Virus record (IMG/VR): IMGVR_UViG_2974696732_000001
DNA: 58,707 nucleotides
Strand: one strand, 5' to 3'
Source of the DNA: a virus
Lineage: Duplodnaviria; Heunggongvirae; Uroviricota; Caudoviricetes
The translations under genes and the position numbers were made by a program. The notes beneath the pieces are model-generated. The model was not told the origin of the DNA, ran no database searches, and saw only the letters and a program-made list of their open reading frames with translations. Shown here piece by piece: positions 1 to 13,285 of this stretch. The first letter of the stretch is position 1; each line of letters starts with the position of its first letter.

Positions 1-541
1 GTCCGGGATATCTCGCAGGTCTTACAAGCATTTGGAGGCACATTCCTAGGTCTAACACGCATCTGGCCCTCGAATCCAAGGCAAATAGGCTTCATAAGCA
101 TCGAAATTAGCCCCGAAAAATCACTCAAAACAAGCAGGAATCACGATATTTCGCCCCTAAATCGGACATTTTGCCCTGATTCTGCCCCGAATCCAGCAAT
201 TTTAACAGTCATTCGTAAAGCAGCCCCAATCCAGCCCTCATTCAGCCCCTAAATCCCCCGAAAATTAGGCATTCATCGTAAATGGACCCCACAATCTAAG
301 GTTGAATAGGCTCACATGCCTTAGATTGATAGGATTGGTGTCGATTCTCCCCATATACACGAGACACTGACCAATCTGGCTGTGATTGGGGATATCAGAA
401 ATCCCCGGCAGTCTTAGAAGCCATTCGTAAATAGACTAAGTAAGCATACACGCATTATAGGTTGTTCTATGTATATGGGGTACAAGGACACCTATGACTA
501 CCGGCCTTGAATCATAGCTTTGTTGTCCATGTATATGGGAA

Positions 542-571
542 AAGCCCACACCAAAGTGTGGGCTTATTTTT
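542..571 (+). terminator. Intrinsic terminator-like hairpin in the non-coding left end
   Basis: AAGCCCACAC-CAAA-GTGTGGGCTT followed by ATTTTT. Confidence 0.6.
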
Positions 572-744
572 CTAACCAAATATGTCTCCAAAATCCGGGA
601 GTTTTCGGCCCCTTCGTAAAGGGAATCTCCGGGAAATTTAGGACGCTATCGTAAAGGGGAAAAAGTCGGACATGACGGACAAATCGTTGTCGATATTGGT
701 AGTCATCTAGTTAGTTAGGTTAGCTAAGTGTCCGGGGCGGACAA

Positions 745-830
745 TTGAAAGGTCCCTGGGGAGAGGCCGACCTTCCTCTAATTAAGCCCTCGCCAGAATG
801 ACTGATAGGGCCCCCAGGGACACACTTTAT
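745..830 (-). ncRNA. Candidate ~85-nt three-way-junction small RNA
   Basis: Lies downstream of promoter 837-865. Stems 752-761/812-821, 762-766/775-779 and 786-790/807-811. No ORF; a U-run follows. Confidence 0.45.
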
Positions 831-836
831 ACTTCT

Positions 837-865
837 ATGTTAGCAAGGCAGTGTTACCTTGTCAA
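837..865 (-). promoter_or_regulatory. sigma70/HrdB-type promoter
   Basis: TTGACA-17-TAACAT on the minus strand. Confidence 0.75.
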
Positions 866-877
866 CATCACTTTAGG

Positions 878-1087
878 TCACCATTCCAGCTCGTCTTCCA
901 CGCAGTAGTGGGACACGAACGGAACGACCCATCGGGTATTGAGAAGATGACCCCTCTCCGTCCACAGAGTCAGAGTTGCAGTCTTGGAATCGAACTCGAT
1001 TCCCTTTCCGCCTCCCTGAATGTTATCGAAGATGAGTTCCCTTCGGACTCCCTCTTCCAGAACGATTACGGTTACCCTGTGAGTCAT
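878..1087 (-). CDS. Hypothetical early protein (69 aa)
   Basis: RBS AAGGGGA 4 nt before ATG; directly follows the 1097-1273 gene. Confidence 0.75.
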   Translation of the reverse strand: MTHRVTVIVLEEGVRRELIFDNIQGGGKGIEFDSKTATLTLWTERGHLLNTRWVVPFVSHYCVEDELEW

Positions 1088-1096
1088 TGCTTCCCC

Positions 1097-1273
1097 TTAC
1101 ACCGGCTCGTTCGGAATGATTACCTCGGTGTTGTCAGCGTTTCGGTAAACCGAGCAGTGACCACAAAGAGGTGTCTCAACATCGTTCAGGTTGAAGGTGC
1201 CGATGGCCCTGCGAGCGAAGCAACCTTCGCAGTCTTCGTTCTCTTCCGGACCGAAGGCCATGACCATCGCCAT
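1097..1273 (-). CDS. Small CxxC...CxxC zinc-finger-like protein (58 aa, not in ORF track)
   Basis: Translated by hand: MAMVMAFGPEENEDCEGCFARR...PLCGHCSVY...; RBS GAAAGGGG; own promoter. Confidence 0.75.
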   Translation of the reverse strand: MAMVMAFGPEENEDCEGCFARRAIGTFNLNDVETPLCGHCSVYRNADNTEVIIPNEPV

Positions 1274-1296
1274 GTCTTTCCCCTTTCGTTGATACG

Positions 1297-1325
1297 AGTC
1301 TAGCAGACTACAAGGACACTGTCTA
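1297..1325 (-). promoter_or_regulatory. Early promoter
   Basis: TAGACA-17-TAGACT. Confidence 0.8.
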
Positions 1326-1403
1326 CCCTGCCGGGCGATTGTCCGGGGCCGCCAAAATCCCCCTAAACCCTTCTGGGCTAGGGGGACTGGCGTGCCTACT
1401 GCA

Positions 1404-2417
1404 TTACGCAGCGAGGCTCAGGACCGCCTTACGGATGCGGTTCTTTTCGGCGTTGACCACCGGGTCGAAACCGCTGGCAGCGATGAACAGGTTGTCCACG
1501 TTGCCACCACGGGGCATCCGGTACCAGTCGATACGCTCGGTCAGAGCGTTCAGGGCACCGGCCATGGTTCCGGCCAGAGATTGAGTGGTCTTCGGACCGG
1601 GGGCCGTGTCGGTGAAGATGCCCATGAGCAGGTCACGCTTCGACTCCCACTTGACCATGCTGCCCTTGACATCCTTCTCGGGCTTGGGGTAGAGAGCCTG
1701 AACGATGCTGTCGAACTGGTCGCGCGTGCACTTGGCAGCGGCCAGCGTGGTCAGCTCACGCTCCAGCTCATCCCCGTACGCGAAGGTGATGTTCAGGGCC
1801 TCACGCGCGGCAGCCATGCGACCCTCGATGGTCTGCGTGTGGCGCATCTTGAACTGCTGCTTCACACCGTTACGGAGTGCGAAGTTCAGCGTGTTCTGAC
1901 ACACGACACGGACCGGAGTGACGGACGCCTGAACGGCCACGGAACCATCGTGAGAGGTGTTGACCAGCAGATAGAGCTTGGTCACGTCGTCGTCACCGAT
2001 GACGATGTCACGAGAGATGGACAGAGACCCGAAGACCACACGCCCATCCTTGATGGAACCGGCAGTCTCCCAGGTTCCACCACCCGCGAGGATGCCGTCA
2101 CCGAAGCCGAACAGGTCTTCGTTCTGGACGACCTTGTACCGCTCGCCCACCGTGGCCAGAACGTCGTTCCGACCGGTGAAGGGGTTGGTACGGACCACCA
2201 TGTGCGGCTCGGTCACGAAGTCATAGGAGTCCGAGACCAGACCCATGATTTCCTTGACCGACTCCAGACGGACGTCCCAGCCCTTGAGGTGAGCCAGAGA
2301 CAGCATCTCGTCGGTGGTCAGCTCTCCCTCGAACACGGTTCCGAGGTTGTGCCACGCGGGCTCGTTGCGAGAAGCGAACGCGACCTGACCCTTGGAACCA
2401 ATCTCAAGACCGTGCAT
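1404..2417 (-). CDS. DUF932-family (phage/plasmid TIGR03299-like) protein, 337 aa
   Basis: Motifs AWHNLG, WETAGSIKDGRVVF, LLVNTSHDGS, TPVRVVCQNTL, MRHT. Start moved to ATG 2417 (RBS AGGAGG, downstream of the promoter). Confidence 0.85.
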   Translation of the reverse strand: MHGLEIGSKGQVAFASRNEPAWHNLGTVFEGELTTDEMLSLAHLKGWDVRLESVKEIMGLVSDSYDFVTEPHMVVRTNPFTGRNDVLATVGERYKVVQNEDLFGFGDGILAGGGTWETAGSIKDGRVVFGSLSISRDIVIGDDDVTKLYLLVNTSHDGSVAVQASVTPVRVVCQNTLNFALRNGVKQQFKMRHTQTIEGRMAAAREALNITFAYGDELERELTTLAAAKCTRDQFDSIVQALYPKPEKDVKGSMVKWESKRDLLMGIFTDTAPGPKTTQSLAGTMAGALNALTERIDWYRMPRGGNVDNLFIAASGFDPVVNAEKNRIRKAVLSLAA

Positions 2418-2475
2418 GTTGTGCCTCCTAGGCAGATTGGTGTAAGGGCTGGTTTCCCTGCCCTTCGATGTCTCT

Positions 2476-2505
2476 AGTCTAGCAGTAAGCAAGGGTGGAT
2501 GTCTA
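2476..2505 (-). promoter_or_regulatory. Early promoter
   Basis: TAGACA-18-TAGACT. Confidence 0.8.
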
Positions 2506-2612
2506 CCCACACTGCCGGGCTCGATGTCCATAATGTCCGATTTGCCGGTTGGCCGGGCCGGACACACCGAAGCCCCCTCCGGAGAGGGGGCAGAGTGCGA
2601 GTCTTAGGAGAC

Positions 2613-3059
2613 TCAGTAGGCCGCGTCCAGCAGGGCACGCTCCCAGTCGGCCAGGTACATGCCGTTCAGCTTGGCCACGTAGGCGTCCACGATGTCCTTG
2701 GAGTCCTTGAGACCCAGACCCGTCTTCTCGCGGAGCTGCTTGATGCACTGAATCTTCTTGTGGGAACCGACCTCACGAACGATGTCCTTGACCAGCTCCT
2801 CACCCTGCGCCTTGACGCGCTTCTCGATGTCCCGGAGACGGGTCAGCTCCCAGCTCGTGGGCTGCTCGGCGTCGGCCTTGCCGGAGGCGTAGCCGTTCTT
2901 GTGGCCCTCGTTGTAGCCCTTGTCCTCGGCCACCCGCTGGACCTCGATGTGGTGGTCCATCATGCGACGGGCCAGACGCATCGCCTGGTCGAAGCTCATG
3001 TGCGGCTGCTCGTCGTGCAGCATGACCAGGTAGACGGCGAGGTTGACGTTGGCGCTCAT
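2613..3059 (-). CDS. Protein with a ribosomal L7/L12 C-terminal-like motif
   Basis: KIQCIKQLREKTGLGLKDSKDIVD resembles the bL12 motif KIxxIKxVRxxTGLGLKEAKDLVE. Confidence 0.7.
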   Translation of the reverse strand: MSANVNLAVYLVMLHDEQPHMSFDQAMRLARRMMDHHIEVQRVAEDKGYNEGHKNGYASGKADAEQPTSWELTRLRDIEKRVKAQGEELVKDIVREVGSHKKIQCIKQLREKTGLGLKDSKDIVDAYVAKLNGMYLADWERALLDAAY

Positions 3060-3105
3060 GTTAGTCTCCGTTTCTCAGGGGGTCCGTCCCCCTTTCGATG
3101 TTCTA

Positions 3106-3135
3106 AGTCTACACGATGACAGGGACAAGGGTCAA
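3106..3135 (-). promoter_or_regulatory. Early promoter
   Basis: TTGACC-18-TAGACT. Confidence 0.85.
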
Positions 3136-3201
3136 CACCGCCTGTGTGCTGATTTTTGTCCGGGCCCGACACGGGCCCCAGAAGTCAAGGGCCCGGTAGG
3201 G

Positions 3202-3492
3202 TCAAGGGTTCGTGTGTCCCCTTTTCAGTAGTATCTGTTCGATGACGAATTTGGAATCCATCACACGATTGAATTCGTCATCTGAGCGACTTTCCGTTCT
3301 TCCTGCCCACGCATTGAGCAGAGAGATGATGAATTGAAACATCACCGCTTGCACAGGCTCAGGGTAGGTAGAAAGGAGGTAGGCGAATGCATGGGGGTCG
3401 AAAGACCGTTTGTCCATTTCATCGATGAGCTTATTCGCCAGACGCTCATACGATGTGGGACGTGGTGTTACGAGTCGCGCACCCTCATACAT
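3202..3492 (-). CDS. Hypothetical protein (start uncertain; ATG 3492 chosen)
   Basis: The 3' part of the track ORF 3202-3663 is protein-like; its 5' part overlaps the gene at 3527-3694. Confidence 0.55.
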   Translation of the reverse strand: MYEGARLVTPRPTSYERLANKLIDEMDKRSFDPHAFAYLLSTYPEPVQAVMFQFIISLLNAWAGRTESRSDDEFNRVMDSKFVIEQILLKRGHTNP

Positions 3493-3526
3493 GTCAGGTG
3501 CGATGATGCTTGTTCGTTTGAAGGGA

Positions 3527-3694
3527 CTACGCGCCACCCTCTCCCCCAAAATCCTGCGTTGTACCGTAGCCGTCTGAGACACTGACAGACAGGCCCAGCA
3601 CCTTTGCCATGAACTCAGCCGTAGCTGTGGCAAAGGGCCAGGCACTGTCGTGAGCGTCATCATCAGGCGTGTCGATTTCGATGATGACTGACAT
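3527..3694 (-). CDS. Small acidic hypothetical protein (55 aa, not in track)
   Basis: MSVIIEIDTPDDDAHDSAWPF...; RBS AGGATAGGA; packed behind the lsr2-like gene. Confidence 0.65.
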   Translation of the reverse strand: MSVIIEIDTPDDDAHDSAWPFATATAEFMAKVLGLSVSVSDGYGTTQDFGGEGGA

Positions 3695-3703
3695 GTTCCT
3701 ATC

Positions 3704-4222
3704 CTATCGCGCGTGAACCTCTACGTCCATCCCGAGCACCACCGGGGAGCCACAGCCGCAGTGCGACAGGCTGTAACCGCACTTGCACACCTCGCGCTCC
3801 GAGAGACGGATACGCTTGTTGCCGTACCAAGCGGTGTACTCCGTACGGGGCGAACGGGTCGGGTTGGCGTGCGGACGGACATCCTTGCCCGTCACCTTGA
3901 CGTGGACGCCGGGCGCAGCGGGCTTGACCTCCGGGTTGTCCGCCTTGTAAGCGGCCAGCACCTCAGCGGAGAGACGACCACGGGCCGAAACGGTCATGCC
4001 CTTGGAAGTGGCCCACGCACGGACCGCCTTCGCATCGAACTGTCCGGCCTTGGGAGCGGCCTTGACGACCTTGCGCGGAGTGGCGTCGGTGTCGGTGAAG
4101 ACCTTGCCCGACTTCTCAGCCTCCGCGATGGCCTCGTATGCGGCAGCGCTCATCCGGCCACGGGACTCCTTGGCCAGGCCCAGAGAGACAGCGTACGCGC
4201 GACGGGTCATGTTGACGTTCAT
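3704..4222 (-). CDS. Lsr2-like DNA-binding protein with two RGR motifs and a C-terminal Cys/His cluster
   Basis: AKAVRAWATSKGMTVSARGRLSAEVLAAYKA matches the Lsr2 DNA-binding domain; degenerate N-terminal copy ESRGRMSAAAYEAI; CKCGYSLSHCGCG. Confidence 0.8.
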   Translation of the reverse strand: MNVNMTRRAYAVSLGLAKESRGRMSAAAYEAIAEAEKSGKVFTDTDATPRKVVKAAPKAGQFDAKAVRAWATSKGMTVSARGRLSAEVLAAYKADNPEVKPAAPGVHVKVTGKDVRPHANPTRSPRTEYTAWYGNKRIRLSEREVCKCGYSLSHCGCGSPVVLGMDVEVHAR

Positions 4223-4249
4223 GGGGTTTCCTTCCCTCGGTGTGCACTC

Positions 4250-4278
4250 AGTCTATCGGATTGAAGGCGGAGAGGCAA
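4250..4278 (-). promoter_or_regulatory. Early promoter (proximal, lsr2-like gene)
   Basis: TTGCCT-17-TAGACT. Confidence 0.75.
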
Positions 4279-4319
4279 GCCCCGGTGCAGAGGTTGGTTT
4301 CCCTCCCCTTCATGTCTCT

Positions 4320-4349
4320 AGTATAGAGGACGTAACAGGGTCATGTCTA
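4320..4349 (-). promoter_or_regulatory. Early promoter (distal, tandem)
   Basis: TAGACA-18-TATACT. Confidence 0.75.
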
Positions 4350-4420
4350 CAGCCTAGAATGTCCGTTTTGTCCGATATGCCCGTTGTCCGGGCCCGACAT
4401 GCCCCCGAAGGGGCAAGGGG

Positions 4421-5155
4421 CTAAGCCTTCCTGCGCTTAGGAACCTTAGAGGCGAATCGGATATCCGCCTTACCAAAGATGCAAAGGCCACACGTCACAC
4501 ATGCGCCTCCATCCTTAGTGATAAGGGGAATGCGCTTGGCATTCTCAGGGCAGATAGCGCCAGGCTTACCAGTTTCGGTAAGCATGAATTCCTTGCCCTT
4601 TTCGTGAGTCTCGTCAAGGTAGGCAAGACGCACAGACGGATATTCCTTTTGCGTTTCCAGCGCCTTTTCCTTGTTCTCACTGTCTACACTGAGATACACA
4701 GAGAGATTGGGCAGACCGTAGATGAATCCCACGTACTCGAAAGAGCGCGTGTAAATCCAGAATTGCACATCCGGAAAGGATTCACAGGTCATTTCGATGG
4801 CCTCTGCATAGGTGGCAGAGAAAATGTCACCATCTGCGTGCCAGCGGAATACCTTGGGAACGTTGTGCTTTTCGCATTCCTCTCGGAACTCACTCACCAT
4901 TTCGGCAAGCAAGTAAACCATTCGAATGAGGCTTGCGTCTTTCAGCAATTCCCAATTGTGCAGGGCAAGGTCACGGAATGCCGGGTATTGCTTTTCCAGC
5001 TTACCGGCATAGCAGACCGTCTCACACACGCCGGTCGCGCCAGGGCAGGAATACGCCTTGCCACTGGGCAGGGAGAATGCGTTTTTGATGAGAGACTGAG
5101 TGCCAGCACCGTTTGCACGATTGGCAGTCTTACGGTCGTGCGAGCGCTTGAGCAT
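4421..5155 (-). CDS. gp88-like (mycobacteriophage gene product 88) Cys-rich, possibly Fe-S/radical-SAM-like protein
   Basis: FSLPSGKAYSCPGATGVCETVCYAGK, FRWHADGD, FWIYTRS, C-terminal CPE...CVTCGLC. Start moved to ATG 5155 (RBS GAAAGGA). Confidence 0.7.
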   Translation of the reverse strand: MLKRSHDRKTANRANGAGTQSLIKNAFSLPSGKAYSCPGATGVCETVCYAGKLEKQYPAFRDLALHNWELLKDASLIRMVYLLAEMVSEFREECEKHNVPKVFRWHADGDIFSATYAEAIEMTCESFPDVQFWIYTRSFEYVGFIYGLPNLSVYLSVDSENKEKALETQKEYPSVRLAYLDETHEKGKEFMLTETGKPGAICPENAKRIPLITKDGGACVTCGLCIFGKADIRFASKVPKRRKA

Positions 5156-5181
5156 GACAGTCCTTTCGTTGACGTAAGTCG

Positions 5182-5210
5182 AGTCTATCAGAGACAGGCT
5201 ACGTAAACAA
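5182..5210 (-). promoter_or_regulatory. Early promoter
   Basis: TTGTTT-17-TAGACT. Confidence 0.7.
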
Positions 5211-5297
5211 GCCCTCAAAATGTCCGTTTTGCCCGATGTCCGGGGCGGCCAAAGGCCCCCTCCAAACGGAGGGGGCCAAGTGGGTTGAACTGGTGAC

Positions 5298-5471
5298 TCA
5301 CTCGGAGTCGGAAGGAGCGAACTCGCCCTGCTCGAACGCGATGTCGAGGAAGCGCTGCGCCTGCTCGCTGTCCAGGTGGGCGATGGCCTCGTTCACGAGG
5401 GTCTGCCGGGTGCTGGCCTTGAGCGGGGTGTTGGCGAAGGAACGGGCGATGGTGTCGAGGACGAGCTGCAT
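5298..5471 (-). CDS. Small hypothetical protein (57 aa, not in track)
   Basis: MQLVLDTIARSFANTPLKAST...; RBS GAAGGAG; own promoter and terminator hairpin; high GC3. Confidence 0.8.
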   Translation of the reverse strand: MQLVLDTIARSFANTPLKASTRQTLVNEAIAHLDSEQAQRFLDIAFEQGEFAPSDSE

Positions 5472-5517
5472 GGTGATTCTCCTTCTCTAGGGGGTGTTTC
5501 CCCCTTTCGATACCCTA

Positions 5518-5547
5518 AGTCTACACGACGCCTAGGGCTGTGTGCAA
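5518..5547 (-). promoter_or_regulatory. Early promoter
   Basis: TTGCAC-18-TAGACT. Confidence 0.8.
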
Positions 5548-5606
5548 GCCTGAATCTGAGGTGATTTTTGTCCGGCCCGGACACAGACCCCCGAAGGGGC
5601 CCGGTG

Positions 5607-5666
5607 TCAGAAGAGAATGAGCAGAATGAACAGGACTGCGATGAGCCACACATACCCATCACGCAT
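5607..5666 (-). CDS. 19-aa hydrophobic micropeptide
   Basis: MRDGYVWLIAVLFILLILF; RBS GGGAGG; overlaps the stop of the upstream micro-ORF; ends at the cassette hairpin. Confidence 0.5.
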   Translation of the reverse strand: MRDGYVWLIAVLFILLILF

Positions 5667-5736
5667 TCTCGCACACCTCCCGGTACCAAGCGTAGTGCGT
5701 GTAGGGGTAGAAGTGAAGCCATTCCACGAAGTACAT
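5659..5736 (-). CDS. 25-aa aromatic-rich micropeptide
   Basis: MYFVEWLHFYPYTHYAWYREVCENA; RBS AGGAG. Confidence 0.5.
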   Translation of the reverse strand: MYFVEWLHFYPYTHYAWYREVCENA

Positions 5737-5743
5737 GACACTC

Positions 5744-6043
5744 CTAGAAGAGTTCGGGTCCGGACTCGCTGTCTTCCGTCCAGTCCTCAGTATACTCGAT
5801 GAACTCGACGTTCAGCAACCACGCGATAAGAACTCGGTGGTGTCCGTTGAAAACGGTGTTCGACTCCACCATGTAGATGATGGGGTCAAGGATGCCCTTG
5901 GAGCAAGATTCAACAAACTCAGGGTTTCCCTCAAAGAGGTCGTTGAACTTCTCTTCGAACATCTGCCAGGTGGTGTGACCCTTGGCCTCAGCATCATTGA
6001 AGATAGCCGACTCAATCAGCTTCGCAACAGATACCTTGGCCAT
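5744..6043 (-). CDS. ParB/Srx-like N-terminal domain protein
   Basis: ILDPIIY...VFNGHHRVLIA resembles the ParBc DGHHR motif. Confidence 0.6.
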   Translation of the reverse strand: MAKVSVAKLIESAIFNDAEAKGHTTWQMFEEKFNDLFEGNPEFVESCSKGILDPIIYMVESNTVFNGHHRVLIAWLLNVEFIEYTEDWTEDSESGPELF

Positions 6044-6069
6044 GTCGCCCTCCTTGGCTTGATAGGTCT

Positions 6070-6098
6070 AGTCTACATGAGTACAAGGGCTGTGTCTA
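6070..6098 (-). promoter_or_regulatory. Early promoter
   Basis: TAGACA-17-TAGACT. Confidence 0.8.
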
Positions 6099-6154
6099 GT
6101 GCCGGGCCAAATTGTCCGGGGCGGCCAAATGGGGCCCCGGAGGGCCCCATTGGG

Positions 6155-6427
6155 TCAGTCTTCGCTGGTGTCCTTCTGGCTCACCAGCTTCGCACGGCCG
6201 AGCAGAGAGGCGTCGGCCTCCTTCCACTTCTTGACCGGCTTGCCGACTCGCACACGGGGGAACCGAGCGATGATGGCACGCGCACGGGTCTCGTCCGCCT
6301 CCAGGATGTCGAACCGCTGGAAGGGGGCACGGGTGGCGATGGGGCCGAACTCGATGTCCACCCCCTGGACAATCATGGCCACGCGGAGGGAGAGGGCGTC
6401 ACGGACGGGAACGATACCGGCAATCAT
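6155..6427 (-). CDS. Hypothetical early protein (90 aa)
   Basis: RBS AGGAG; high GC3; followed by hairpin and palindrome. Confidence 0.75.
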   Translation of the reverse strand: MIAGIVPVRDALSLRVAMIVQGVDIEFGPIATRAPFQRFDILEADETRARAIIARFPRVRVGKPVKKWKEADASLLGRAKLVSQKDTSED

Positions 6428-6541
6428 GTGAACTCCTGAGAGTCGAAGTAAGCTGGGGTATTCAGTTATCAGAGACTTTGGCAGGAAGGGAAAAACCTCA
6501 CGTTGCGAGGCCCTGTGGCCTGTCCCCTTGTGCTTAGCTAG

Positions 6542-6571
6542 AGTCTATCAGCCTGACCTAGTTGCAGTCAA
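6542..6571 (-). promoter_or_regulatory. Early promoter with a ~110-nt leader containing a terminator-like hairpin (6491-6510)
   Basis: TTGACT-18-TAGACT; leader contains CCTCGC-AAC-GTGAGG-TTTTT. Confidence 0.7.
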
Positions 6572-6740
6572 CCAGGTATTCGGGCTCGTCGTCCTCGGAG
6601 ACCGTCCAGATGTCGGCCAGCCAACCCTTACGGATGACACCGGCCGTCTCGAACTTGTGCGGCTCAGCGGACTCACGAACCGCATCTGCGTACTCCTCTT
6701 CGGAGATGATGCTGTAACCCTCGGGAATCTCGAACGTCAT
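6558..6740 (-). CDS. Small acidic hypothetical protein (60 aa)
   Basis: RBS GAGGAG; own promoter. Confidence 0.75.
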   Translation of the reverse strand: MTFEIPEGYSIISEEEYADAVRESAEPHKFETAGVIRKGWLADIWTVSEDDEPEYLVDCN

Positions 6741-6785
6741 GACCGCTCCTCTCGTTGGGAGGCTTCCCTCCCTCTCGATGTTCTA

Positions 6786-6814
6786 AGTCTACATGACCGA
6801 TGGGACAGGCGCAA
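6786..6814 (-). promoter_or_regulatory. Early promoter
   Basis: TTGCGC-17-TAGACT. Confidence 0.8.
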
Positions 6815-6876
6815 CAACCAATATTCGTTAGTCTGCCTAAGTTGTCCGGGGCCGACAGGCCCCGAAGGGCCCTTTG

Positions 6877-7032
6877 TCAGTCTCCCATGTCGTCCAGATG
6901 AGCATCCGGAGCGGGCTCGAACTCAAGGAAGGTGTCTTCGAAAATCACCATCCATGCGTAGCCCTCACGATTGTCCGGATTGCACTTGCCACGGTGCATG
7001 TCACCCATGGCAGCGCCACATTCGATGCACAT
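6877..7032 (-). CDS. Small Cys/His protein (51 aa, not in track)
   Basis: MCIECGAAMGDMHRGKC...; TGATG overlap with the upstream stop. Confidence 0.7.
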   Translation of the reverse strand: MCIECGAAMGDMHRGKCNPDNREGYAWMVIFEDTFLEFEPAPDAHLDDMGD

Positions 7033-7256
7033 CAGCGCCCCAGGTTGTAGAGAGAGGCAACCAGCATCTCAACTCGGTTGACTCGAATCGAAAGGCGGGA
7101 GCCGTTCGCGTCGGTGAGGGTGAACAGCTTCATGTCGTTGTGAACCGCTTCGGTCCATGCCAGATTGATGGCATCGGGCGTGGTGTCCTTGATGTAGGCC
7201 ACCAGCGTCTTGTCACGGTCGTGGAAGTACAGCTCAACACGAACATCGTTCAGCAT
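7032..7256 (-). CDS. Hypothetical early protein (74 aa)
   Basis: RBS AGAGGA; own promoter. Confidence 0.75.
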   Translation of the reverse strand: MLNDVRVELYFHDRDKTLVAYIKDTTPDAINLAWTEAVHNDMKLFTLTDANGSRLSIRVNRVEMLVASLYNLGR

Positions 7257-7301
7257 GGTGCATCCTCTCTTCCGGGAGCTTTTCTCCCTTTCGATGCTCT
7301 A

Positions 7302-7330
7302 ACTCTACAGCATGTGGGAGGCAGATACAA
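7302..7330 (-). promoter_or_regulatory. Early promoter
   Basis: TTGTAT-17-TAGAGT. Confidence 0.75.
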
Positions 7331-7388
7331 CCCCAATTTGAAAGTGTCCGGGCCCGACACGGGCCCCGAAGGGCCCGGCGGAAAGGTG

Positions 7389-7673
7389 TTACTTCTTGGC
7401 CTTGGTGCGACGGTTGCTGTGGTTGCCGTTCATGAGGGCGGTGAAGTCCAGCATGATGTTCTGCTTGAAGTTGGTCGCTCCGTGGAACTTGCCGTCCTGG
7501 TCACGGATGACGATGCGGACCTCGGTGGAGTCGCTGCCCGGAGTGGTCTTCCAGGTCTCCAGCCGGATGCTGTAGACGGACTTGGAACCCTTGACCTTGA
7601 AGCCCTCGGAGATGGTGACGGAGGAGACGATGTTGTGGTTGACGTCGGTCTTCTTGGCGAGGGTAACGGCCAT
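7389..7673 (-). CDS. Basic hypothetical early protein (94 aa)
   Basis: RBS GAGGAG; own promoter and hairpin. Confidence 0.8.
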   Translation of the reverse strand: MAVTLAKKTDVNHNIVSSVTISEGFKVKGSKSVYSIRLETWKTTPGSDSTEVRIVIRDQDGKFHGATNFKQNIMLDFTALMNGNHSNRRTKAKK

Positions 7674-7727
7674 TTGAAGCTCCTCAGAGTCTCGCTTGGG
7701 GGTTCCTTCCCCCTTGCTGATAGCTAA

Positions 7728-7757
7728 AGTCTACACGACCCAAGGGACATCGCGCAA
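7728..7757 (-). promoter_or_regulatory. Early promoter
   Basis: TTGCGC-18-TAGACT. Confidence 0.8.
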
Positions 7758-7818
7758 CCCCTGAATTTATGTCCTTTTTGTCCGTCCGGGCCGGACAGGG
7801 CCCCGGAGGGCCCGTCCA

Positions 7819-8160
7819 TCACTCGGAGGGGAAAGACTCAGCGAAGAACTTGGCACGCTCCCTCTTGGCACGGCTGTGAGCACCGTCACGGCTTGCGTAC
7901 TCCTGGAACTCCGACACGGTGTCGATGGTGAGATGTCCGTTTTCGTCCAGCTTGGCCACACGAACGGTGTAGAGTCGGGGAGACATGTCGTCGAAGCGCT
8001 CGGAGGAGACGAAGAACATCGTCTTCCCCTGCAAGTCGCTGTAGCACATCTCGGAGATGCGGGAGTTGAAGAAGCGCAGGGTGGCCCGGTCGAAGAAGTG
8101 GTTGTTCTGGTCCTTGGCGATGGCCTTGACGTCTTCCAGAGAGAACATCTGAGTGCGCAT
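7819..8160 (-). CDS. Hypothetical early protein (HFFDRATLRFFNSR motif)
   Basis: Start moved to ATG 8160, downstream of the promoter; RBS GAGAGGA. Confidence 0.8.
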   Translation of the reverse strand: MRTQMFSLEDVKAIAKDQNNHFFDRATLRFFNSRISEMCYSDLQGKTMFFVSSERFDDMSPRLYTVRVAKLDENGHLTIDTVSEFQEYASRDGAHSRAKRERAKFFAESFPSE

Positions 8161-8191
8161 TGTGTGGGTTCCTCTCCCTCGGTGTAAGTAG

Positions 8192-8221
8192 AGTCTAACA
8201 CAGCTCAAGGACAGGCCACAA
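8192..8221 (-). promoter_or_regulatory. Early promoter
   Basis: TTGTGG-18-TAGACT. Confidence 0.7.
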
Positions 8222-8282
8222 CACCTACCGGGCCTTTTTCTGAAAGTGTCCGGCCCCGACAGGGGCCCGAAGGCCCCTTCTG

Positions 8283-8606
8283 TCAGGTGAGCTGAGCCAG
8301 GAGAGAACTGATTTCCTGACGGAGTTCGGACTGAGGCCGGTAGCCTCGCTCCGCCTTCAACTGACGCTCGAAGTAGGCGCGAAGTTCGGTCTTGTTGTAC
8401 GGACCGTACGCCTGGTCAGCGTAGTCGATGTCCTCGAACGGAATGGGGCAGGAGCAACCGGAGTCGCTTGCCACGTAGTACCGCCCTCGGGCCTCCTTCC
8501 ACACTCGCGTCTCGTTGAACTGGTAGGATTCGTGGTCCCAGTCGAACCCACCGACGTAGGTCAGGCTGTCCAGCGAAATACGCTCGGGCTTCGAAAGGTC
8601 GGTCAT
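8283..8606 (-). CDS. Hypothetical early protein (DSGCSCPIPFE motif)
   Basis: RBS GAGGAGG; high GC3. Confidence 0.8.
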   Translation of the reverse strand: MTDLSKPERISLDSLTYVGGFDWDHESYQFNETRVWKEARGRYYVASDSGCSCPIPFEDIDYADQAYGPYNKTELRAYFERQLKAERGYRPQSELRQEISSLLAQLT

Positions 8607-8615
8607 GGTTCCTCC

Positions 8616-8759
8616 TCAGATGTCTTTACGCTGAACTTTATCACACTTGGAGCACTGGCGCACCTGAATCAGCGCCTTCCAGGTACCGAGCTTGGGGAAG
8701 AGAGGGGAGTCGAACGTTCCCACCATCTGCTTCCAGTTGGACCACTTGTGGAAACACAT
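8616..8759 (-). CDS. Small Cys-containing protein (47 aa)
   Basis: MCFHKW...RQCSKCDK; RBS GGAGG; start moved to ATG 8759. Confidence 0.7.
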   Translation of the reverse strand: MCFHKWSNWKQMVGTFDSPLFPKLGTWKALIQVRQCSKCDKVQRKDI

Positions 8760-8784
8760 CCCGTCCTCCGTTTTCGTTAGCTCT

Positions 8785-8813
8785 AGTCTACAGGGCCAAT
8801 TTTTGAGTCGCAA
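8785..8813 (-). promoter_or_regulatory. Early promoter
   Basis: TTGCGA-17-TAGACT. Confidence 0.8.
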
Positions 8814-8880
8814 CCCCAAAGTCCAGATTTTTAGTCGCAGATTTTTAGTCCGGGGCGGACAGGCCCGAAGGCCCTTCCGC

Positions 8881-9195
8881 TCACTCCCAAGGCTTGTAGT
8901 CACTCCAGTCCGCACCCTCGCGCGGCTCGATGAGGATTTCGATGGTGTCGCCCAGACGGTGATTCACGCTGTACAGAGAACGGGAAGAACCCTGGTAGCG
9001 ACGCTGCGCCTTGGCCCACTTGACCAGCTTCTCAGCCTGCTTGGCCGAACGACAGGGCCATGCCTCGATGCACAGACCGTAGTTGAACCACCATCCGCCC
9101 TCTTCGCTGCCTCCCCATGCACGCTGCAATTCGTAGACGTTCACCCAGTGCTTGTTCCGACGACGCTGGCCCATACGGAGTGACTTCTTCGCCAT
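8881..9195 (-). CDS. Hypothetical early protein (AWGGSEEGGWW motif)
   Basis: RBS AAGGAGG; own promoter and hairpin. Confidence 0.8.
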   Translation of the reverse strand: MAKKSLRMGQRRRNKHWVNVYELQRAWGGSEEGGWWFNYGLCIEAWPCRSAKQAEKLVKWAKAQRRYQGSSRSLYSVNHRLGDTIEILIEPREGADWSDYKPWE

Positions 9196-9218
9196 GTTTC
9201 CTCCTTGGTGATGACCTA

Positions 9219-9247
9219 AGTCTAACAGACGCCTAGGACAGACTCAA
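9219..9247 (-). promoter_or_regulatory. Early promoter
   Basis: TTGAGT-17-TAGACT. Confidence 0.8.
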
Positions 9248-9309
9248 CATGCTTGTAAGGATATTTTTTCATTTAGGGAGTGTCCCGCCCGGACAAAAAA
9301 TTCGCCCAC

Positions 9310-9370
9310 AAATTCACCCCTCTTTTCTAAGGAAATCTAGGCGAAAATCCTTGAAAAGAGGGGTGAATTT
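9310..9370. repeat. Long inverted repeat (18 bp perfect plus 5 bp); possible bidirectional terminator or cruciform
   Basis: AAATTCACCCCTCTTTTC(T)AAGGA ... TCCTTGAAAAGAGGGGTGAATTT. Confidence 0.8.
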
Positions 9371-9393
9371 TTTCTATGAAGTTTTTTCGAAGG

Positions 9394-9606
9394 TCAGATG
9401 GCGACTTTTTCGTCTTTTCCTGCCTCACAAAGGCAGTATTTCGAATGTGTCGCCTCGATTGCGGTAAAACCGCTTTCCTCGTAGCGTGCGAGGAGATTCG
9501 CCAGAAGGGACGAGTTGAATACCGAAGTTTTCGATTTCAGCCCGTCCCTTTCCAGCAAAAGGGACATACTGTGGAATTGTACCGGTTTCGGCCTTTTCCT
9601 GAACAT
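9394..9606 (-). CDS. Hypothetical protein (70 aa, AT-richer than neighbours)
   Basis: RBS AAGGGG; follows 9625-9768. Confidence 0.55.
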   Translation of the reverse strand: MFRKRPKPVQFHSMSLLLERDGLKSKTSVFNSSLLANLLARYEESGFTAIEATHSKYCLCEAGKDEKVAI

Positions 9607-9624
9607 GAATGCCCCTTTTAGGTG

Positions 9625-9768
9625 TTACGCCAGTTCGGCCATGTGCGGGTAGGCGTCCCAGTCGAAGCCGTCCACACGGTCCGCATCCCGAACGTCGGAA
9701 ACGGGAACCGTGATGGTGGTGAAGACACCCGCGTCAGCGGCCTGCTCAAGAAGGTCACGAAGGTCCAT
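9625..9768 (-). CDS. Small acidic protein (47 aa, not in track)
   Basis: MDLRDLLEQAADAGVF...; RBS GAGAGGA; own promoter. Confidence 0.75.
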   Translation of the reverse strand: MDLRDLLEQAADAGVFTTITVPVSDVRDADRVDGFDWDAYPHMAELA

Positions 9769-9800
9769 GGTGTGTACTTCCTCTCGCTTGGTGTAGTACC

Positions 9801-9829
9801 AGTCTACACAAGGGGTAGGGCAGATGCAA
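9801..9829 (-). promoter_or_regulatory. Early promoter
   Basis: TTGCAT-17-TAGACT. Confidence 0.8.
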
Positions 9830-9884
9830 GCCCAAAGTCTCCGGGAATTTTTCGTGCCTATCGTACACGCGCGGGGGAAATGTG

Positions 9885-10030
9885 GGGTATGTACGTAACG
9901 CCCCTTAAAAGGGCCTATATCCTAGATGTCCCATATGTACCCTATGCCCTATATGGGTGGGTATGGGATGGTATGCCCTATATGTACCCCTATGTATGGG
10001 TATGTACCCAATGTCCGTTTTGCCCCATAT
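9885..10030. repeat. Low-complexity TATG/TATGTACCC repeat tract
   Basis: TATGTACCC three times plus many GGTATG and CCTATAT units in non-coding DNA. Confidence 0.7.
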
Positions 10031-10091
10031 GTCGTCCGGGGCGGACAGGTAACGCTTAGGTAAAGCTTCCAAGATTCTTGCTGAATTGGGG

Positions 10092-10119
10092 TTGCATGGG
10101 TGTCCGGGGCGGGTATGCT
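10092..10119 (+). promoter_or_regulatory. Rightward promoter with a TGTCCG palindrome copy in its spacer
   Basis: TTGCAT-16-TATGCT; TGTCCGGGGCGGGTA at 10101-10115. Confidence 0.6.
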
Positions 10120-10152
10120 GTAAGCACAGCAACGAACAAGGGAGACAGGGAC

Positions 10153-10590
10153 ATGAACACCACCACCGCTCACCAGTGCAAGTACCAGAATGAAACCCAG
10201 GTCAACGCCCGTATCCGTAGGCAGGTGCTCGCTACGGTGCTGTACCTGGCCACCCTTACGGGTGACAGTGACGGTGCTACGTGGGCCAATTGTGTGGGGT
10301 GTGGGGAGCGTGCCCACGTGGGAGGTACCCCTAGGGCTATGGACACGTTCAACCTGGGGCACGTGCTGGCAGACGCTGAGGGTGGGATGTACTGCCCTTG
10401 CAACCTGCTCCCCCTGTGCAGGCAGTGCAACGCTGACATGGGTAAGGAGACCCTTACTGATGTGCTTGTTCCCCGTTACGACAATCGGGAAATGTGGAAC
10501 GGTAAGGTTCTGCCCGACCCTGGCACGGTGGCCGCTAAGCCTGAGAGCAACCGTGGACGTGCCCGCTGGAACGCCCCTGTGACCGTCTGA
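10153..10590 (+). CDS. HNH (His-Me finger) endonuclease-like protein
   Basis: CVGCG...GHVLADAEGG...NLLPLCRQCN; start moved to ATG 10153; terminator hairpin at 10605-10632. Confidence 0.7.
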   Translation: MNTTTAHQCKYQNETQVNARIRRQVLATVLYLATLTGDSDGATWANCVGCGERAHVGGTPRAMDTFNLGHVLADAEGGMYCPCNLLPLCRQCNADMGKETLTDVLVPRYDNREMWNGKVLPDPGTVAAKPESNRGRARWNAPVTV

Positions 10591-10604
10591 GACGCTGTGA
10601 AGGT

Positions 10605-10632
10605 GCCCCCTAGGGTAGTTTGCCTAGGGGGC
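10605..10632 (+). terminator. Hairpin after the HNH gene
   Basis: GCCCCCTAGG-N8-CCTAGGGGGC. Confidence 0.7.
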
Positions 10633-10828
10633 TAATTCATGCCCGCAGACGGGCCCTCAGCCCTTTTGAAAACGGCTTTCAGGTTGGGTGGAACCTTCCC
10701 CGGAACCTTCCCGCGACAGAATGTCAAGGGGTATGGGCGCACTATTTGGATTGTTACAAAGGTATGCGAAGCATGTATCATACATCACAAAAAATTACTA
10801 ACATTTCGCACACCTTTTAATGTAACAA

Positions 10829-11047
10829 TTAGGTAACGTCCGGGTCGGACTCGTCGGACATATCGAAGCTCGGAGCAGGCCCGAATACCTTACCCAATGC
10901 GTGTCCACGAAAGATGATTTCTGCTTCTTCCTTGTTTACGCCTCGTGCAATGCAAGTCAGCATATCATAGATACGCATCAGCATGATTGCATTGACGACA
11001 GAAGAAGCGTCCTCATCGAACATATCAGTCTCTGTCTTATCAGTCAT
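10829..11047 (-). CDS. Hypothetical protein
   Basis: Overlaps the thyX stop; RBS AAGG; start moved to ATG 11047. Confidence 0.7.
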   Translation of the reverse strand: MTDKTETDMFDEDASSVVNAIMLMRIYDMLTCIARGVNKEEAEIIFRGHALGKVFGPAPSFDMSDESDPDVT

Positions 11048-12412: not shown

Positions 12413-13285
12413 TCAGTTTGTCACATGTCCTGGGGCACTGTCAAGACGTGACACAGCCTTGTTCACCGTATTCAAGGGAATGTCCTTCTCCTTGATGTCA
12501 CAAATACGCTTGTGCAATTCTGTCCTGTCCGTGACACCTTGGGACCATAGGGCTCTGACCAGCGCGGACACTGATTTGTCCTTACTCATGTCATCTGTCA
12601 CCGGGGCAGGCTCTGTCACATTCTTTGTCCTAGGGACATTATCCGTGACAGGAATGTCCGGTGACGTGACAGAAAATGTCTTGTCCTTTTTGTCCTTCTT
12701 TGGTGTCACGATGTCACGCTTCTTGTCCCGTTCGAGAGGTTGTCCAGTGACACCCGTGACAACCTCGTTCAGACGATAGAATACCACGTCCTTGAATCCA
12801 CGGAAAGTCTTACCTGGAAAGATAAGCCAGCTAATCTTACCAAACACTGGCATACGCTTCGGAACAAGACCATTGGCACGCATCTCGCTTCGGTGAACGA
12901 AGCGCAGATAAAGCTCGAAAAGGATTCCTGCGATAACTGGTGGGGCACCAAAAAGCACCATTCCAGGAATGCCATAGGATAGCAGGATGGCGTGTTCTAC
13001 GTTGAGGTATACAGACGCTCCGACAAACAGATACGTCGCTAGTTTTGTTGCAAGACCGGAGTCTTCTGTTCTGGCGTACTTACTGGCAAGGTCAGCTACA
13101 AACAAAGCAGCACCATCGAATGCCGCGCTTACACCGATAGCCAGAATCTGAGGCACGCCATAGAACGTAATTGCGAGCGAATAAAGACTCCACCAACTCA
13201 GTGCCAGCGCGACAATGAGAACCACTCCGAATGATATTGAACCTCGCCAATCAAGAATTCTCTTGACATTTGGCGTCTTCATCAT
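12413..13285 (-). CDS. DUF2637/SpdA-like membrane protein with a probable C-terminal DNA-binding domain
   Basis: Four N-terminal hydrophobic helices, ALSWWSLYSLA...FDGAA..., low-complexity linker, helical C-terminus; RBS AAGGAG before ATG 13285. Confidence 0.65.
   Translation of the reverse strand: MMKTPNVKRILDWRGSISFGVVLIVALALSWWSLYSLAITFYGVPQILAIGVSAAFDGAALFVADLASKYARTEDSGLATKLATYLFVGASVYLNVEHAILLSYGIPGMVLFGAPPVIAGILFELYLRFVHRSEMRANGLVPKRMPVFGKISWLIFPGKTFRGFKDVVFYRLNEVVTGVTGQPLERDKKRDIVTPKKDKKDKTFSVTSPDIPVTDNVPRTKNVTEPAPVTDDMSKDKSVSALVRALWSQGVTDRTELHKRICDIKEKDIPLNTVNKAVSRLDSAPGHVTN
12419..12761. repeat. Cluster of 13 TGTCAC/GTGAC(A) motifs inside the gene
   Basis: Copies at 12419, 12448, 12496, 12531, 12596, 12614, 12645, 12661, 12666, 12704, 12712, 12747 and 12756, in both orientations. 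Confidence 0.85.

Follow-up and report, generated by a model that had tools for sequence, protein, structure and literature searches.

The first 11 kb of a 58,707-nucleotide stretch of viral DNA (IMG/VR record IMGVR_UViG_2974696732_000001; the whole stretch is called the window here) carry a short inverted repeat, TGTCCG-N3-CGGACA, again and again between small genes. What is this 15-bp dyad, and what reads it? On the sequence comparisons given below, we see about an even chance that it is a multi-copy operator, a double-stranded DNA site read by a twofold-symmetric, sequence-specific protein. The window comes from a Streptomyces phage of cluster BE1, of which it covers the left 58.7 kb. Over its first 11 kb it matches the start of Bartholomune, a Streptomyces phage of the same cluster (Samistivirus), at 99% identity, and the identity beyond is ~95%; the 99%-identical Bartholomune record was used as the full-genome stand-in. 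In the 131,879-bp Bartholomune record, each motif copy of 729–10049 is found again at +121,099 bp. Therefore, positions 1–10,780 form a long direct terminal repeat (DTR) of 10,780 bp, and each copy of the dyad is present twice per genome. This left DTR copy is an early gene array with all strong dyads inside it. It contains 21 small genes, all on the minus strand, and a single plus-strand gene, encoding an HNH protein, and it is shared by at least 83 records in the phage collection. Published BE1 repeats span 10,666–11,458 bp with 20–25 open reading frames (ORFs), a size likened to that of the T5 and SPO1 repeats (PMC5764925). The same announcement paper describes the repeat genes as of unknown function except for lsr2 and does not mention a repeated motif (PMC5764925). 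The abstract of the Riptide report describes the phage as lytic.

We found 16 strong copies of TGTCSG-SSS-CGGACA at 729–10115, plus one weak copy at 10837. The exact 15-mer TGTCCG-N3-CGGACA occurs only twice in the window, at 729 and 5569. Allowing up to two mismatches raises the count in the window to 21, of which 18 fall within 729–10851, compared with a mean of 1.9 and a maximum of 7 in shuffles. A weight matrix made from the sites returned 16 sites of 18.8–25.3 bits, all at 729–10115, and no other window position reached 14 bits, a threshold at which block-shuffled sequence gives 0–3 sites. The remaining 48 kb of the window contain no dyad by this measure. The preliminary description had counted about 17 copies at 729–10851 and had noticed none past 10.9 kb, and both observations hold. 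It had also suggested motif scans of the whole genome and of the host. In the phage genomes the copies are not evenly spread, being confined to the DTR apart from one at 11496 in the relative Jay2Jay; this is the counterpart of window position 10837, a perfect copy just past the repeat. Two Streptomyces genomes have seven exact copies each (per 8.6 Mb), and the six that we inspected all lie within long coding frames. We therefore rejected a host regulon for the dyad in these two genomes. Literature matches to the TGTCCG/CGGACA hexamer in Streptomyces are mostly primers.

The transcribed-strand consensus is T-G-T-C-S-G-S-C-C-C-G-G-A-C-A, and the half facing the promoter is nearly invariant. A dyad is present in 15 of the 16 intergenic gaps of the DTR. 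The exception, 6428–6557, has a promoter, TTGACT-18-TAGACT at 6542–6571, with neither hairpin nor dyad, an arrangement unique in the array. A further copy at 2201, within a gene and with two mismatches, looks like a chance match.

The place of the dyad within each early unit is also regular. With the small DTR genes all on the minus strand, a dyad comes after each hairpin and before the promoter that follows. Read on that strand, a module consists of a stop codon, a GC-rich hairpin (loop TTCG or TCCG) that lacks a U tract, and then the dyad. An A-rich stretch or CGGACA direct repeats follow, then a promoter with a weak -35 element (TTGNNN or TAGACA), a spacer of 17–18 nt and TAGACT, and finally a conserved leader and the gene. 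The dyad begins 0–3 nt past the hairpin in 13 of 16 cases. Distances from dyad to -35 element at the 13 promoters are 14, 14, 14, 21, 21, 25, 25, 26, 28, 33, 33, 35, and 44 nt, all within the 14–44 bp given in the preliminary description. The dyad is thus at a fixed spacing relative to the hairpin and a variable one relative to the promoter, and box and -35 element show only weak helical phasing (R 0.52, p ~0.03). Host-type promoters outside the DTR (TTGAC[AG]-17-TAGAGT, with a good -35) have no box, which indicates that the box is not a general promoter accessory.

This position also suits a reading of the box as RNA, either as a second small hairpin or as an alternative partner of the terminator's 3′ arm, which would aid termination, pausing or early transcript stability. 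Most boxes directly follow a strong hairpin that lacks a U tract, and in perfect copies six base pairs can close a loop of 3 nt (-6.5 kcal/mol). The hairpin's 3′ arm is in some relatives formed by the left half of the box itself, a terminator/antiterminator-like topology. In addition, two further box types of relatives, B and K, have strand-biased centres. Still, we consider an RNA role unlikely, as what is conserved is specific bases and not pairing. Among 50 distinct 15-mers from six genomes with the box type of the window (W type), the stem pairs are broken 14, 3, 17, 2, 11, and 2 times, that is, 49 one-sided breaks vs 2 compensatory changes. In alignments of the window with four relatives, positions 2, 4, 6, and 10–14 of orthologous dyads are 92–100% identical, whereas the central positions 7–9 are 56–66% identical, staying G or C, and the flanks 35–65%. 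The neighbouring hairpins in the same five-phage alignments change in sequence and keep their pairing.

Folding calculations agree with this picture. The motifs alone fold at -1.6 to -6.5 kcal/mol, nine of the 16 being weaker than -3, and in context the motif hairpin is rarely part of the minimum-energy structure. A second terminator hairpin should show a compensated stem and a U tract after it; the box has neither and is followed by A-rich or mixed sequence. A consensus scan for hairpins with a T-run found none on the DTR minus strand, and the box has no family match in Rfam. In several cassettes of the B-type phage Bmoc, the corresponding box and the terminator's 3′ arm have four or five bases in common, an overlap that likewise favours a DNA site. 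Boxes also occur out of context: at 10033 there is no upstream unit, at 10101 the box sits in the spacer of a plus-strand promoter, and at 729 no promoter follows. The conservation pattern therefore favours half-site-by-half-site reading of double-stranded DNA by a protein over an RNA hairpin. The preliminary description had preferred a symmetric DNA-binding protein to an RNA structure, and the conserved half-sites, free centre, one-sided deviations and weak folds point the same way.

Next, the boxes of related phages fall into three types that occupy the same slot. The W type is found in Jay2Jay, Mildred21, Samisti12, Angela, and Bartholomune, where sites with at most one mismatch occur only in the two repeat copies, except for Jay2Jay 11496; the ~110 kb between the repeats of these five phages contain no W-type box at that threshold. 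Bmoc and Anedea (B type) have no W box, and the slot past each hairpin is instead GGCCGCCCCGGCC. Karimac (cluster BE2; K type) carries RRCCGCCCCGGY, then AAAAGATCTTG. The B and K boxes are likewise confined to the repeat, with all matches to the oriented patterns on the transcribed strand and a few inverted copies (CCGGGGCGG) in the same slots. The three types share the inner CCG-N3-CGG and are told apart by the outer three bases. In the W type, the site is a dyad whose centre flips between orthologous copies, and not an asymmetric site of one orientation.

All ~15 boxes switch type together between phages that are otherwise ~80% identical. Such a concerted switch would be the expected outcome of co-evolution with a specific reader, by analogy with stoperators, and gene conversion could add to it. 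Phages of the W and K types share the host Streptomyces griseus ATCC 10137, so the box type is not dictated by the host. Separately, we observed that the Karimac AAAAGATCTTG contains GATCTT (for example in the gaps 3242–3352 and 5729–5860). GATC-(A/T)T is reported as the consensus of the Streptomyces nucleoid protein Gbn/SCO1839 (PMC9239103), and in K-type cassettes AAAAGATCTTG may be a site for a host factor.

Stoperators of cluster A mycobacteriophages differ in sequence between related phages and co-evolve with the repressor (PMC9283540, PMC6550527). As in L5 and Bxb1, short intergenic gaps contain one short site many times over (here 16 vs 0–3 in shuffled sequence), and the site falls into specificity groups, here the W, B, and K types in the same slot. 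Stoperators act on transcription passing through them. However, they are asymmetric, 13–14 bp long, spread genome-wide in temperate phages and bound by a monomeric immunity repressor, whereas our site is a dyad confined to the DTR of a phage reported to be lytic.

All dyads except 16 are on the minus strand. Dyads 2–6 and 8–14 were located by both the two-mismatch scan and the weight matrix. Dyad 1 (729–743), a perfect copy found by sequence match and weight matrix, comes after the last structured element of the leftward array and has no promoter beyond it. Dyad 2 (1340–1354) has the left half TGGCGG and is followed 14 nt on by the promoter-like TAGACA-17-TAGACT (1297–1325). Dyad 3 (2550–2564) precedes TAGACA-18-TAGACT (2476–2505) by 44 nt, and dyad 4 (3157–3171), also marked by homology-block ends, precedes TTGACC-18-TAGACT (3106–3135) by 21 nt. 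Dyad 5 (4385–4399) lies 35 nt upstream of the promoter of the Lsr2-like gene, TAGACA-18-TATACT (4320–4349). Dyad 6 (5237–5251) is 26 nt from TTGTTT-17-TAGACT (5182–5210), and the perfect dyad 7 (5569–5583; exact match and weight matrix) is 21 nt from TTGCAC-18-TAGACT (5518–5547).

The next four pairs are dyad 8 (6113–6127) with TAGACA-17-TAGACT (6070–6098) at 14 nt, dyad 9 (6843–6857) with TTGCGC-17-TAGACT (6786–6814) at 28 nt, dyad 10 (7345–7359) with TTGTAT-17-TAGAGT (7302–7330) at 14 nt, and dyad 11 (7783–7797) with TTGCGC-18-TAGACT (7728–7757) at 25 nt. Dyad 12 (8247–8261) is followed after 25 nt by TTGTGG-18-TAGACT (8192–8221). Past dyad 13 (8847–8861) come a 14-bp tandem, AAAAATCTGSGACT, and, at 33 nt, TTGCGA-17-TAGACT (8785–8813). 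Dyad 14 (9281–9295) lies ~19 nt past a U-tailed hairpin and 33 nt before TTGAGT-17-TAGACT (9219–9247). All these promoter-like sequences are on the minus strand.

Dyad 15 (10033–10047) has no adjacent hairpin and stands at the head of a long periodic stretch of repeats that precedes the first leftward promoter. Dyad 16 (10101–10115) is the weakest at 18.8 bits and lies in the spacer of a plus-strand promoter-like TTGCAT-16-TATGCT before the HNH gene. The weak copy at 10837–10851 (minus strand) has two mismatches and falls within the final codons of the gene that comes first beyond the DTR. The preliminary description had placed a copy in a promoter spacer and another in a gene end, as we see here, and had listed 729, 9281, and 10033 as lacking any hairpin. 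That is correct for 10033 only, as a U-tailed hairpin precedes the dyad at 9281 and site 729 is 3 nt past the closing stem of a structured RNA. Here we also observed, at 745–865 on the minus strand, the sole leftward TTGACA-17-TAACAT promoter, which leads into a structured, ORF-less stretch closed by a 10-bp stem; a canonical hairpin and T-run terminator is found at 542–565.

A subset of cassettes, those before the DUF932, Lsr2-like, and GP88-like genes and gene 21, carries additional half-sites as head-to-tail direct repeats in the interval from dyad to -35 element. The preliminary description had reported them as TGTCCG-N4-TGYCCG on a 10-bp period. They are present, but their period is 9 bp, with TGTCCG at 4360 and 4369 and a period of 9 at 4359–4385 according to Tandem Repeats Finder (TRF). 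On the minus strand, the repeats AAATCGGACA and ATTATGGACA occupy 2525–2549, between dyad 3 and its -35 element, and ATATCGGACA and AAAACGGACA occupy 4359–4384 (TRF period 9). Direct half-site repeats also adjoin dyad 6 (AAAACGGACA, 5221–5236), dyad 11 (AAAAAGGACA, 7770–7782), and dyad 15 (AAAACGGACA, 10012–10032), again on the minus strand. Although the dyads differ between W, B, and K phages, the cassettes that carry these units are the same. Beside dyad 15, ~130 bp of GGGTACATA/ATAGGGCAT-like units with a 9–10-bp period continue the CGGACA repeats at 9850–10030. This array lies near the right edge of the DTR and is conserved in Bmoc and Karimac.

The flanking units bring to mind BldC, a 68-residue MerR-like winged-helix protein of the host. 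BldC binds 9-bp direct repeats head-to-tail with the consensus AATTNNNNC, and an optimised site was built from AATTCGGACA (PMC5859096). Its Arg30 is on the TG step and its Lys26 on the GG of TGTCCG, and the whiI site is at -50 to -80 (PMC5859096). If BldC, or a BldC-like filament, read the CGGACA half-sites including those of the dyads, the early genes would be tied to the vegetative state of the host. The units AAAACGGACA, ATATCGGACA, and AAATCGGACA do repeat every 9 bp, match the optimised BldC site (PMC5859096) and are kept at the same cassettes across the three phage types. At least two head-to-tail 9-bp units with an AT tract and C(A) 4 bp later are found at 2525–2549 and 4359–4384, and single BldC-consensus units at 5221, 7770, and 10012. 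The dyad itself has no such arrangement, as its inner flank is G/C.

Furthermore, changing AATT to GGCC abolished BldC binding (PMC5859096), and this change gives exactly the GGCCCGGACA half of the dyad. An AT-flanked unit is missing from about 10 cassettes, the window contains no excess of the loose unit WWWWNGGAC (27 vs 28.7 in shuffles), and the B and K dyads lack CGGACA. We regard BldC as a reader of the boxes as improbable. Since the AATT-to-GGCC change abolishes binding, BldC is a lead for the flanking arrays and not for the dyad.

Other winged-helix systems offer partial parallels. BldC has sites at whiI and smeA, and its optimal site contains the TGTCCG/CGGACA hexamer (PMC5859096); gp36 of phage D29 is a small mycobacteriophage winged-helix protein that reads GC-rich repeats and tunes phage genes (PMC12266134). 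These two small proteins both coat direct repeats, 9-bp or GC-rich ones, that lie upstream of promoters (PMC5859096, PMC12266134). In contrast to our inverted repeat with its GC centre, their sites are direct repeats, those of BldC flanked by AT, and no HTH_17 or MerR-like protein is found in W-type phages. The ram sites of Bacillus subtilis RacA, as two reports summarise them (PMC5859096, PMC12266134), are GC-rich 14-bp inverted repeats, many and clustered, bound by a symmetric MerR-like winged-helix dimer. They differ from the dyad in serving to anchor the bacterial chromosome, and no RacA-like protein was detected here.

We then looked for the reading protein by comparing the proteomes of five W-type, two B-type, and one K-type genomes. 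The B-type phages are near-identical, making W vs B in effect one evolutionary contrast, so covariation with box type has little power. The preliminary description had named four candidate binders in the window: the Lsr2-like, ParB-like, 12413–13285, and 52949–53464 proteins. We dropped all four, as they are equally similar to their B-type and W-type orthologues and none has a recognisable sequence-specific DNA-reading domain suited to a GC-rich dyad. No host relative of the Lsr2-like protein was found. Among the ORFs of the repeat and the window we found no helix-turn-helix (HTH), ribbon-helix-helix or MerR-like protein, and most of the small proteins have no known family. HTH_17, the BldC/Xis family, is absent from W- and B-type phages, with only a sub-threshold match in Karimac. 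A 50-amino-acid HTH protein of a relative was also set aside, being a generic HTH that has no relative in the PDB and does not track box type.

Four products or genes do track it: the 90-amino-acid product of 6155–6427, the HNH endonuclease of the repeat, and two small genes near 107 kb. Elsewhere, the W- or B-specific genes (near 107 kb, 104 kb, and 90 kb in the relatives) belong to no Pfam family and do not look like DNA binders. The product of 6155–6427 (minus strand) is conserved at 84–100% within the W type, at 57% in the B type, and is absent from Karimac. Its predicted model has a PII/PstA-like beta-alpha-beta-beta-alpha ferredoxin-type fold with a disordered, charged tail (predicted local distance difference test score, 73). 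The Foldseek matches of this model to PII/PstA are weak (E ~0.03), and the protein atlas returned nothing for the product.

The HNH protein (10153–10590) suggests a different use of the boxes, as sites at which a phage nuclease cuts, nicks or recombines DNA in repeat processing, recombination-driven replication or cassette exchange. It is the product of the only plus-strand gene of the repeat, with boxes on either side at 10101 and 10837, and mosaic breakpoints fall at boxes. Its identity is 76–84% among W-type phages, 53–54% in the B type and 60% in Karimac, though W vs B is a single contrast of little power. Pfam shows the catalytic HNH motif alone, without a recognisable DNA-reading domain; we looked for an AP2-type domain and it is absent. 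One box per gap also suits transcription units better than genome processing, and we think a nuclease is quite unlikely to be what the boxes serve.

The boxes might also be recognition sequences for a phage FtsK/TraB-like translocase that pumps or spreads phage DNA, similar to the 8-bp clt repeats. TraB proteins recognise clt 8-bp direct repeats, and SpdB2 homologues of actinophages have been proposed to spread phage DNA (PMC4447253). Bartholomune 74131–75948 encodes an FtsK/TraB-like translocase with a conserved C-terminal winged helix, and 12413–13285 (minus strand) encodes an SpdB2-like DUF2637 membrane protein. An SpdB2-like and an FtsK/TraB-like protein are the pair that spreads Streptomyces plasmids through hyphae. 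In the last 80 residues of the translocase, Bartholomune and the B type differ by a single H/N change, well upstream of the putative recognition helix, and the Karimac C-terminus is also little changed, though the boxes differ. Moreover, the boxes are dyads placed by transcription unit and not oriented tandem arrays. We consider this explanation highly improbable.

The boxes also coincide with the joints of mosaic early regions. When the DTR of the window was compared with six relatives, 38 of 83 homology-block ends lay within 60 bp of a dyad centre, whereas random placement of the ends gave a mean of 15.3 and a maximum of 29 in 2000 trials. Blocks begin at or within 6 bp of the edge of dyad 4 (3157) in five relatives and exactly at 5569 in Mildred21. 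Genes 1, 2, 4, 9, 13, 14, and 16–18 are missing or sharply diverged in at least one relative. The preliminary description had mentioned a recombination site as an alternative, and the clustering of block ends fits this as a secondary role.

One could go further and propose that the box is only a mobile regulatory cassette joint with no dedicated binder, the core of a terminator-promoter module kept alike by the recombination that shuffles early genes. The promoter-early stem-loop (PeSL) elements of T4-like phages, composite promoter and stem-loop motifs, behave in this way (PMC2839356, PMC4122927), and the genes between our boxes are gained, lost or replaced among phages. Both PeSL hallmarks are seen here: a repeated stem-loop with an early promoter around small variable genes, and breakpoints at the modules. 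However, homogenisation should fix the centre of the box as well. The W-type centre varies among copies and orthologues while the half-sites are fixed, which argues for selection on the half-sites. Fifteen bases are also short for homologous exchange, and breakpoints favour intergenic DNA in any case, since it diverges faster. The idea is compatible with an operator; as a replacement for one we find it possible but doubtful. The composite of terminator hairpin and early promoter between small variable genes, with breakpoints at the modules, is shared with PeSLs (PMC2839356, PMC4122927), but these have no separate dyad between hairpin and promoter, and here the 15-bp dyad is the best-conserved part.

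A multi-copy operator thus remains our preferred reading, and several points weigh against it. No binder was found, and Pfam and PHROGs show no HTH among the 21 repeat-encoded proteins or other small ORFs of the window. The annotated DNA binders (Lsr2-like, 50-amino-acid HTH, WhiB, and FtsK-like winged helix) are alike across box types, and the repeat-encoded product of 6155–6427, which does track the type, models as PII/PstA-like and not as a DNA binder. A fixed distance to the hairpin and not to the promoter is unusual for a promoter operator. The B and K centres are fixed as CCC on the transcribed strand, which hints at a strand-specific or homogenising process.

In our proposed mechanism, the reading protein would most likely be phage-encoded and produced after infection starts. 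Each subunit would read one TGTCCG half-site, leaving the 3-bp G/C centre uncontacted. One box marks the 3′ border of every early unit, 14–44 nt before the next host-type promoter, and with a box at every unit, filling all boxes would act on the whole DTR array at once. Our best guess at the effect is shut-off or insulation, in which bound protein would block read-through; where 9-bp half-site arrays bridge to the -35 element, it would also cover the next promoter. The box, as the sequence common to all cassettes, would also be a place of cassette exchange between phages. Protein binding is our inference here, as are the protein's symmetry, its origin and the direction in which it acts. The preliminary description had envisaged a master switch that shuts off or boosts all early cassettes; confinement to the early array fits a common control element.

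A more elaborate scheme, which we offer as speculation with little probability, combines these elements. The box and an early-made phage protein would form a type-specific shut-off of the host-takeover array that also silences an incoming phage of the same type, and the 9-bp units would additionally recruit BldC, coupling the array to vegetative hyphae. Such same-type exclusion would drive the concerted W/B/K switches of ~15 boxes, like the immunity groups of temperate phages.

Two further features of the DTR were observed. A second repeat family, TTTACGA, ~9–10 nt, TAAAWTT, YCSGGRGATT, is present in five copies of one orientation in the gene-free left end (219–655, minus strand), with one more copy at 9867, just upstream of the first leftward early promoter. 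Its spacing is too short for a host-type promoter, so it may be an end, packaging or replication signal. The minus-strand gene at 2613–3059 encodes an early protein, highly variable between relatives, that contains a C-terminal domain of ribosomal L7/L12 type (Pfam E 9e-08).

SPO1 early units each have their own strong promoter and terminator, and to our knowledge no repeated dyad has been described between the units of T5 or SPO1 early regions. The likeness to those phages lies in a ~10–13-kb direct terminal repeat full of small early genes (PMC5764925), although their early regions have no sequence relationship to this DTR. The box is a variant of known multi-copy phage operators and PeSL modules and not a new category.

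Cluster BE phages are a large, well-sampled group, and control of their T5/SPO1-like early region had not been studied previously. The breakpoint pattern is a picture of how these phages swap early genes. The dyad is a concrete 15-bp bait for finding a regulator, and the three natural box types could serve directly as controls for specificity. A binder, if there is one, would offer a simple way to switch ~14 promoters at once, a useful genetic part for Streptomyces, and a way into the function of some 20 orphan early genes.

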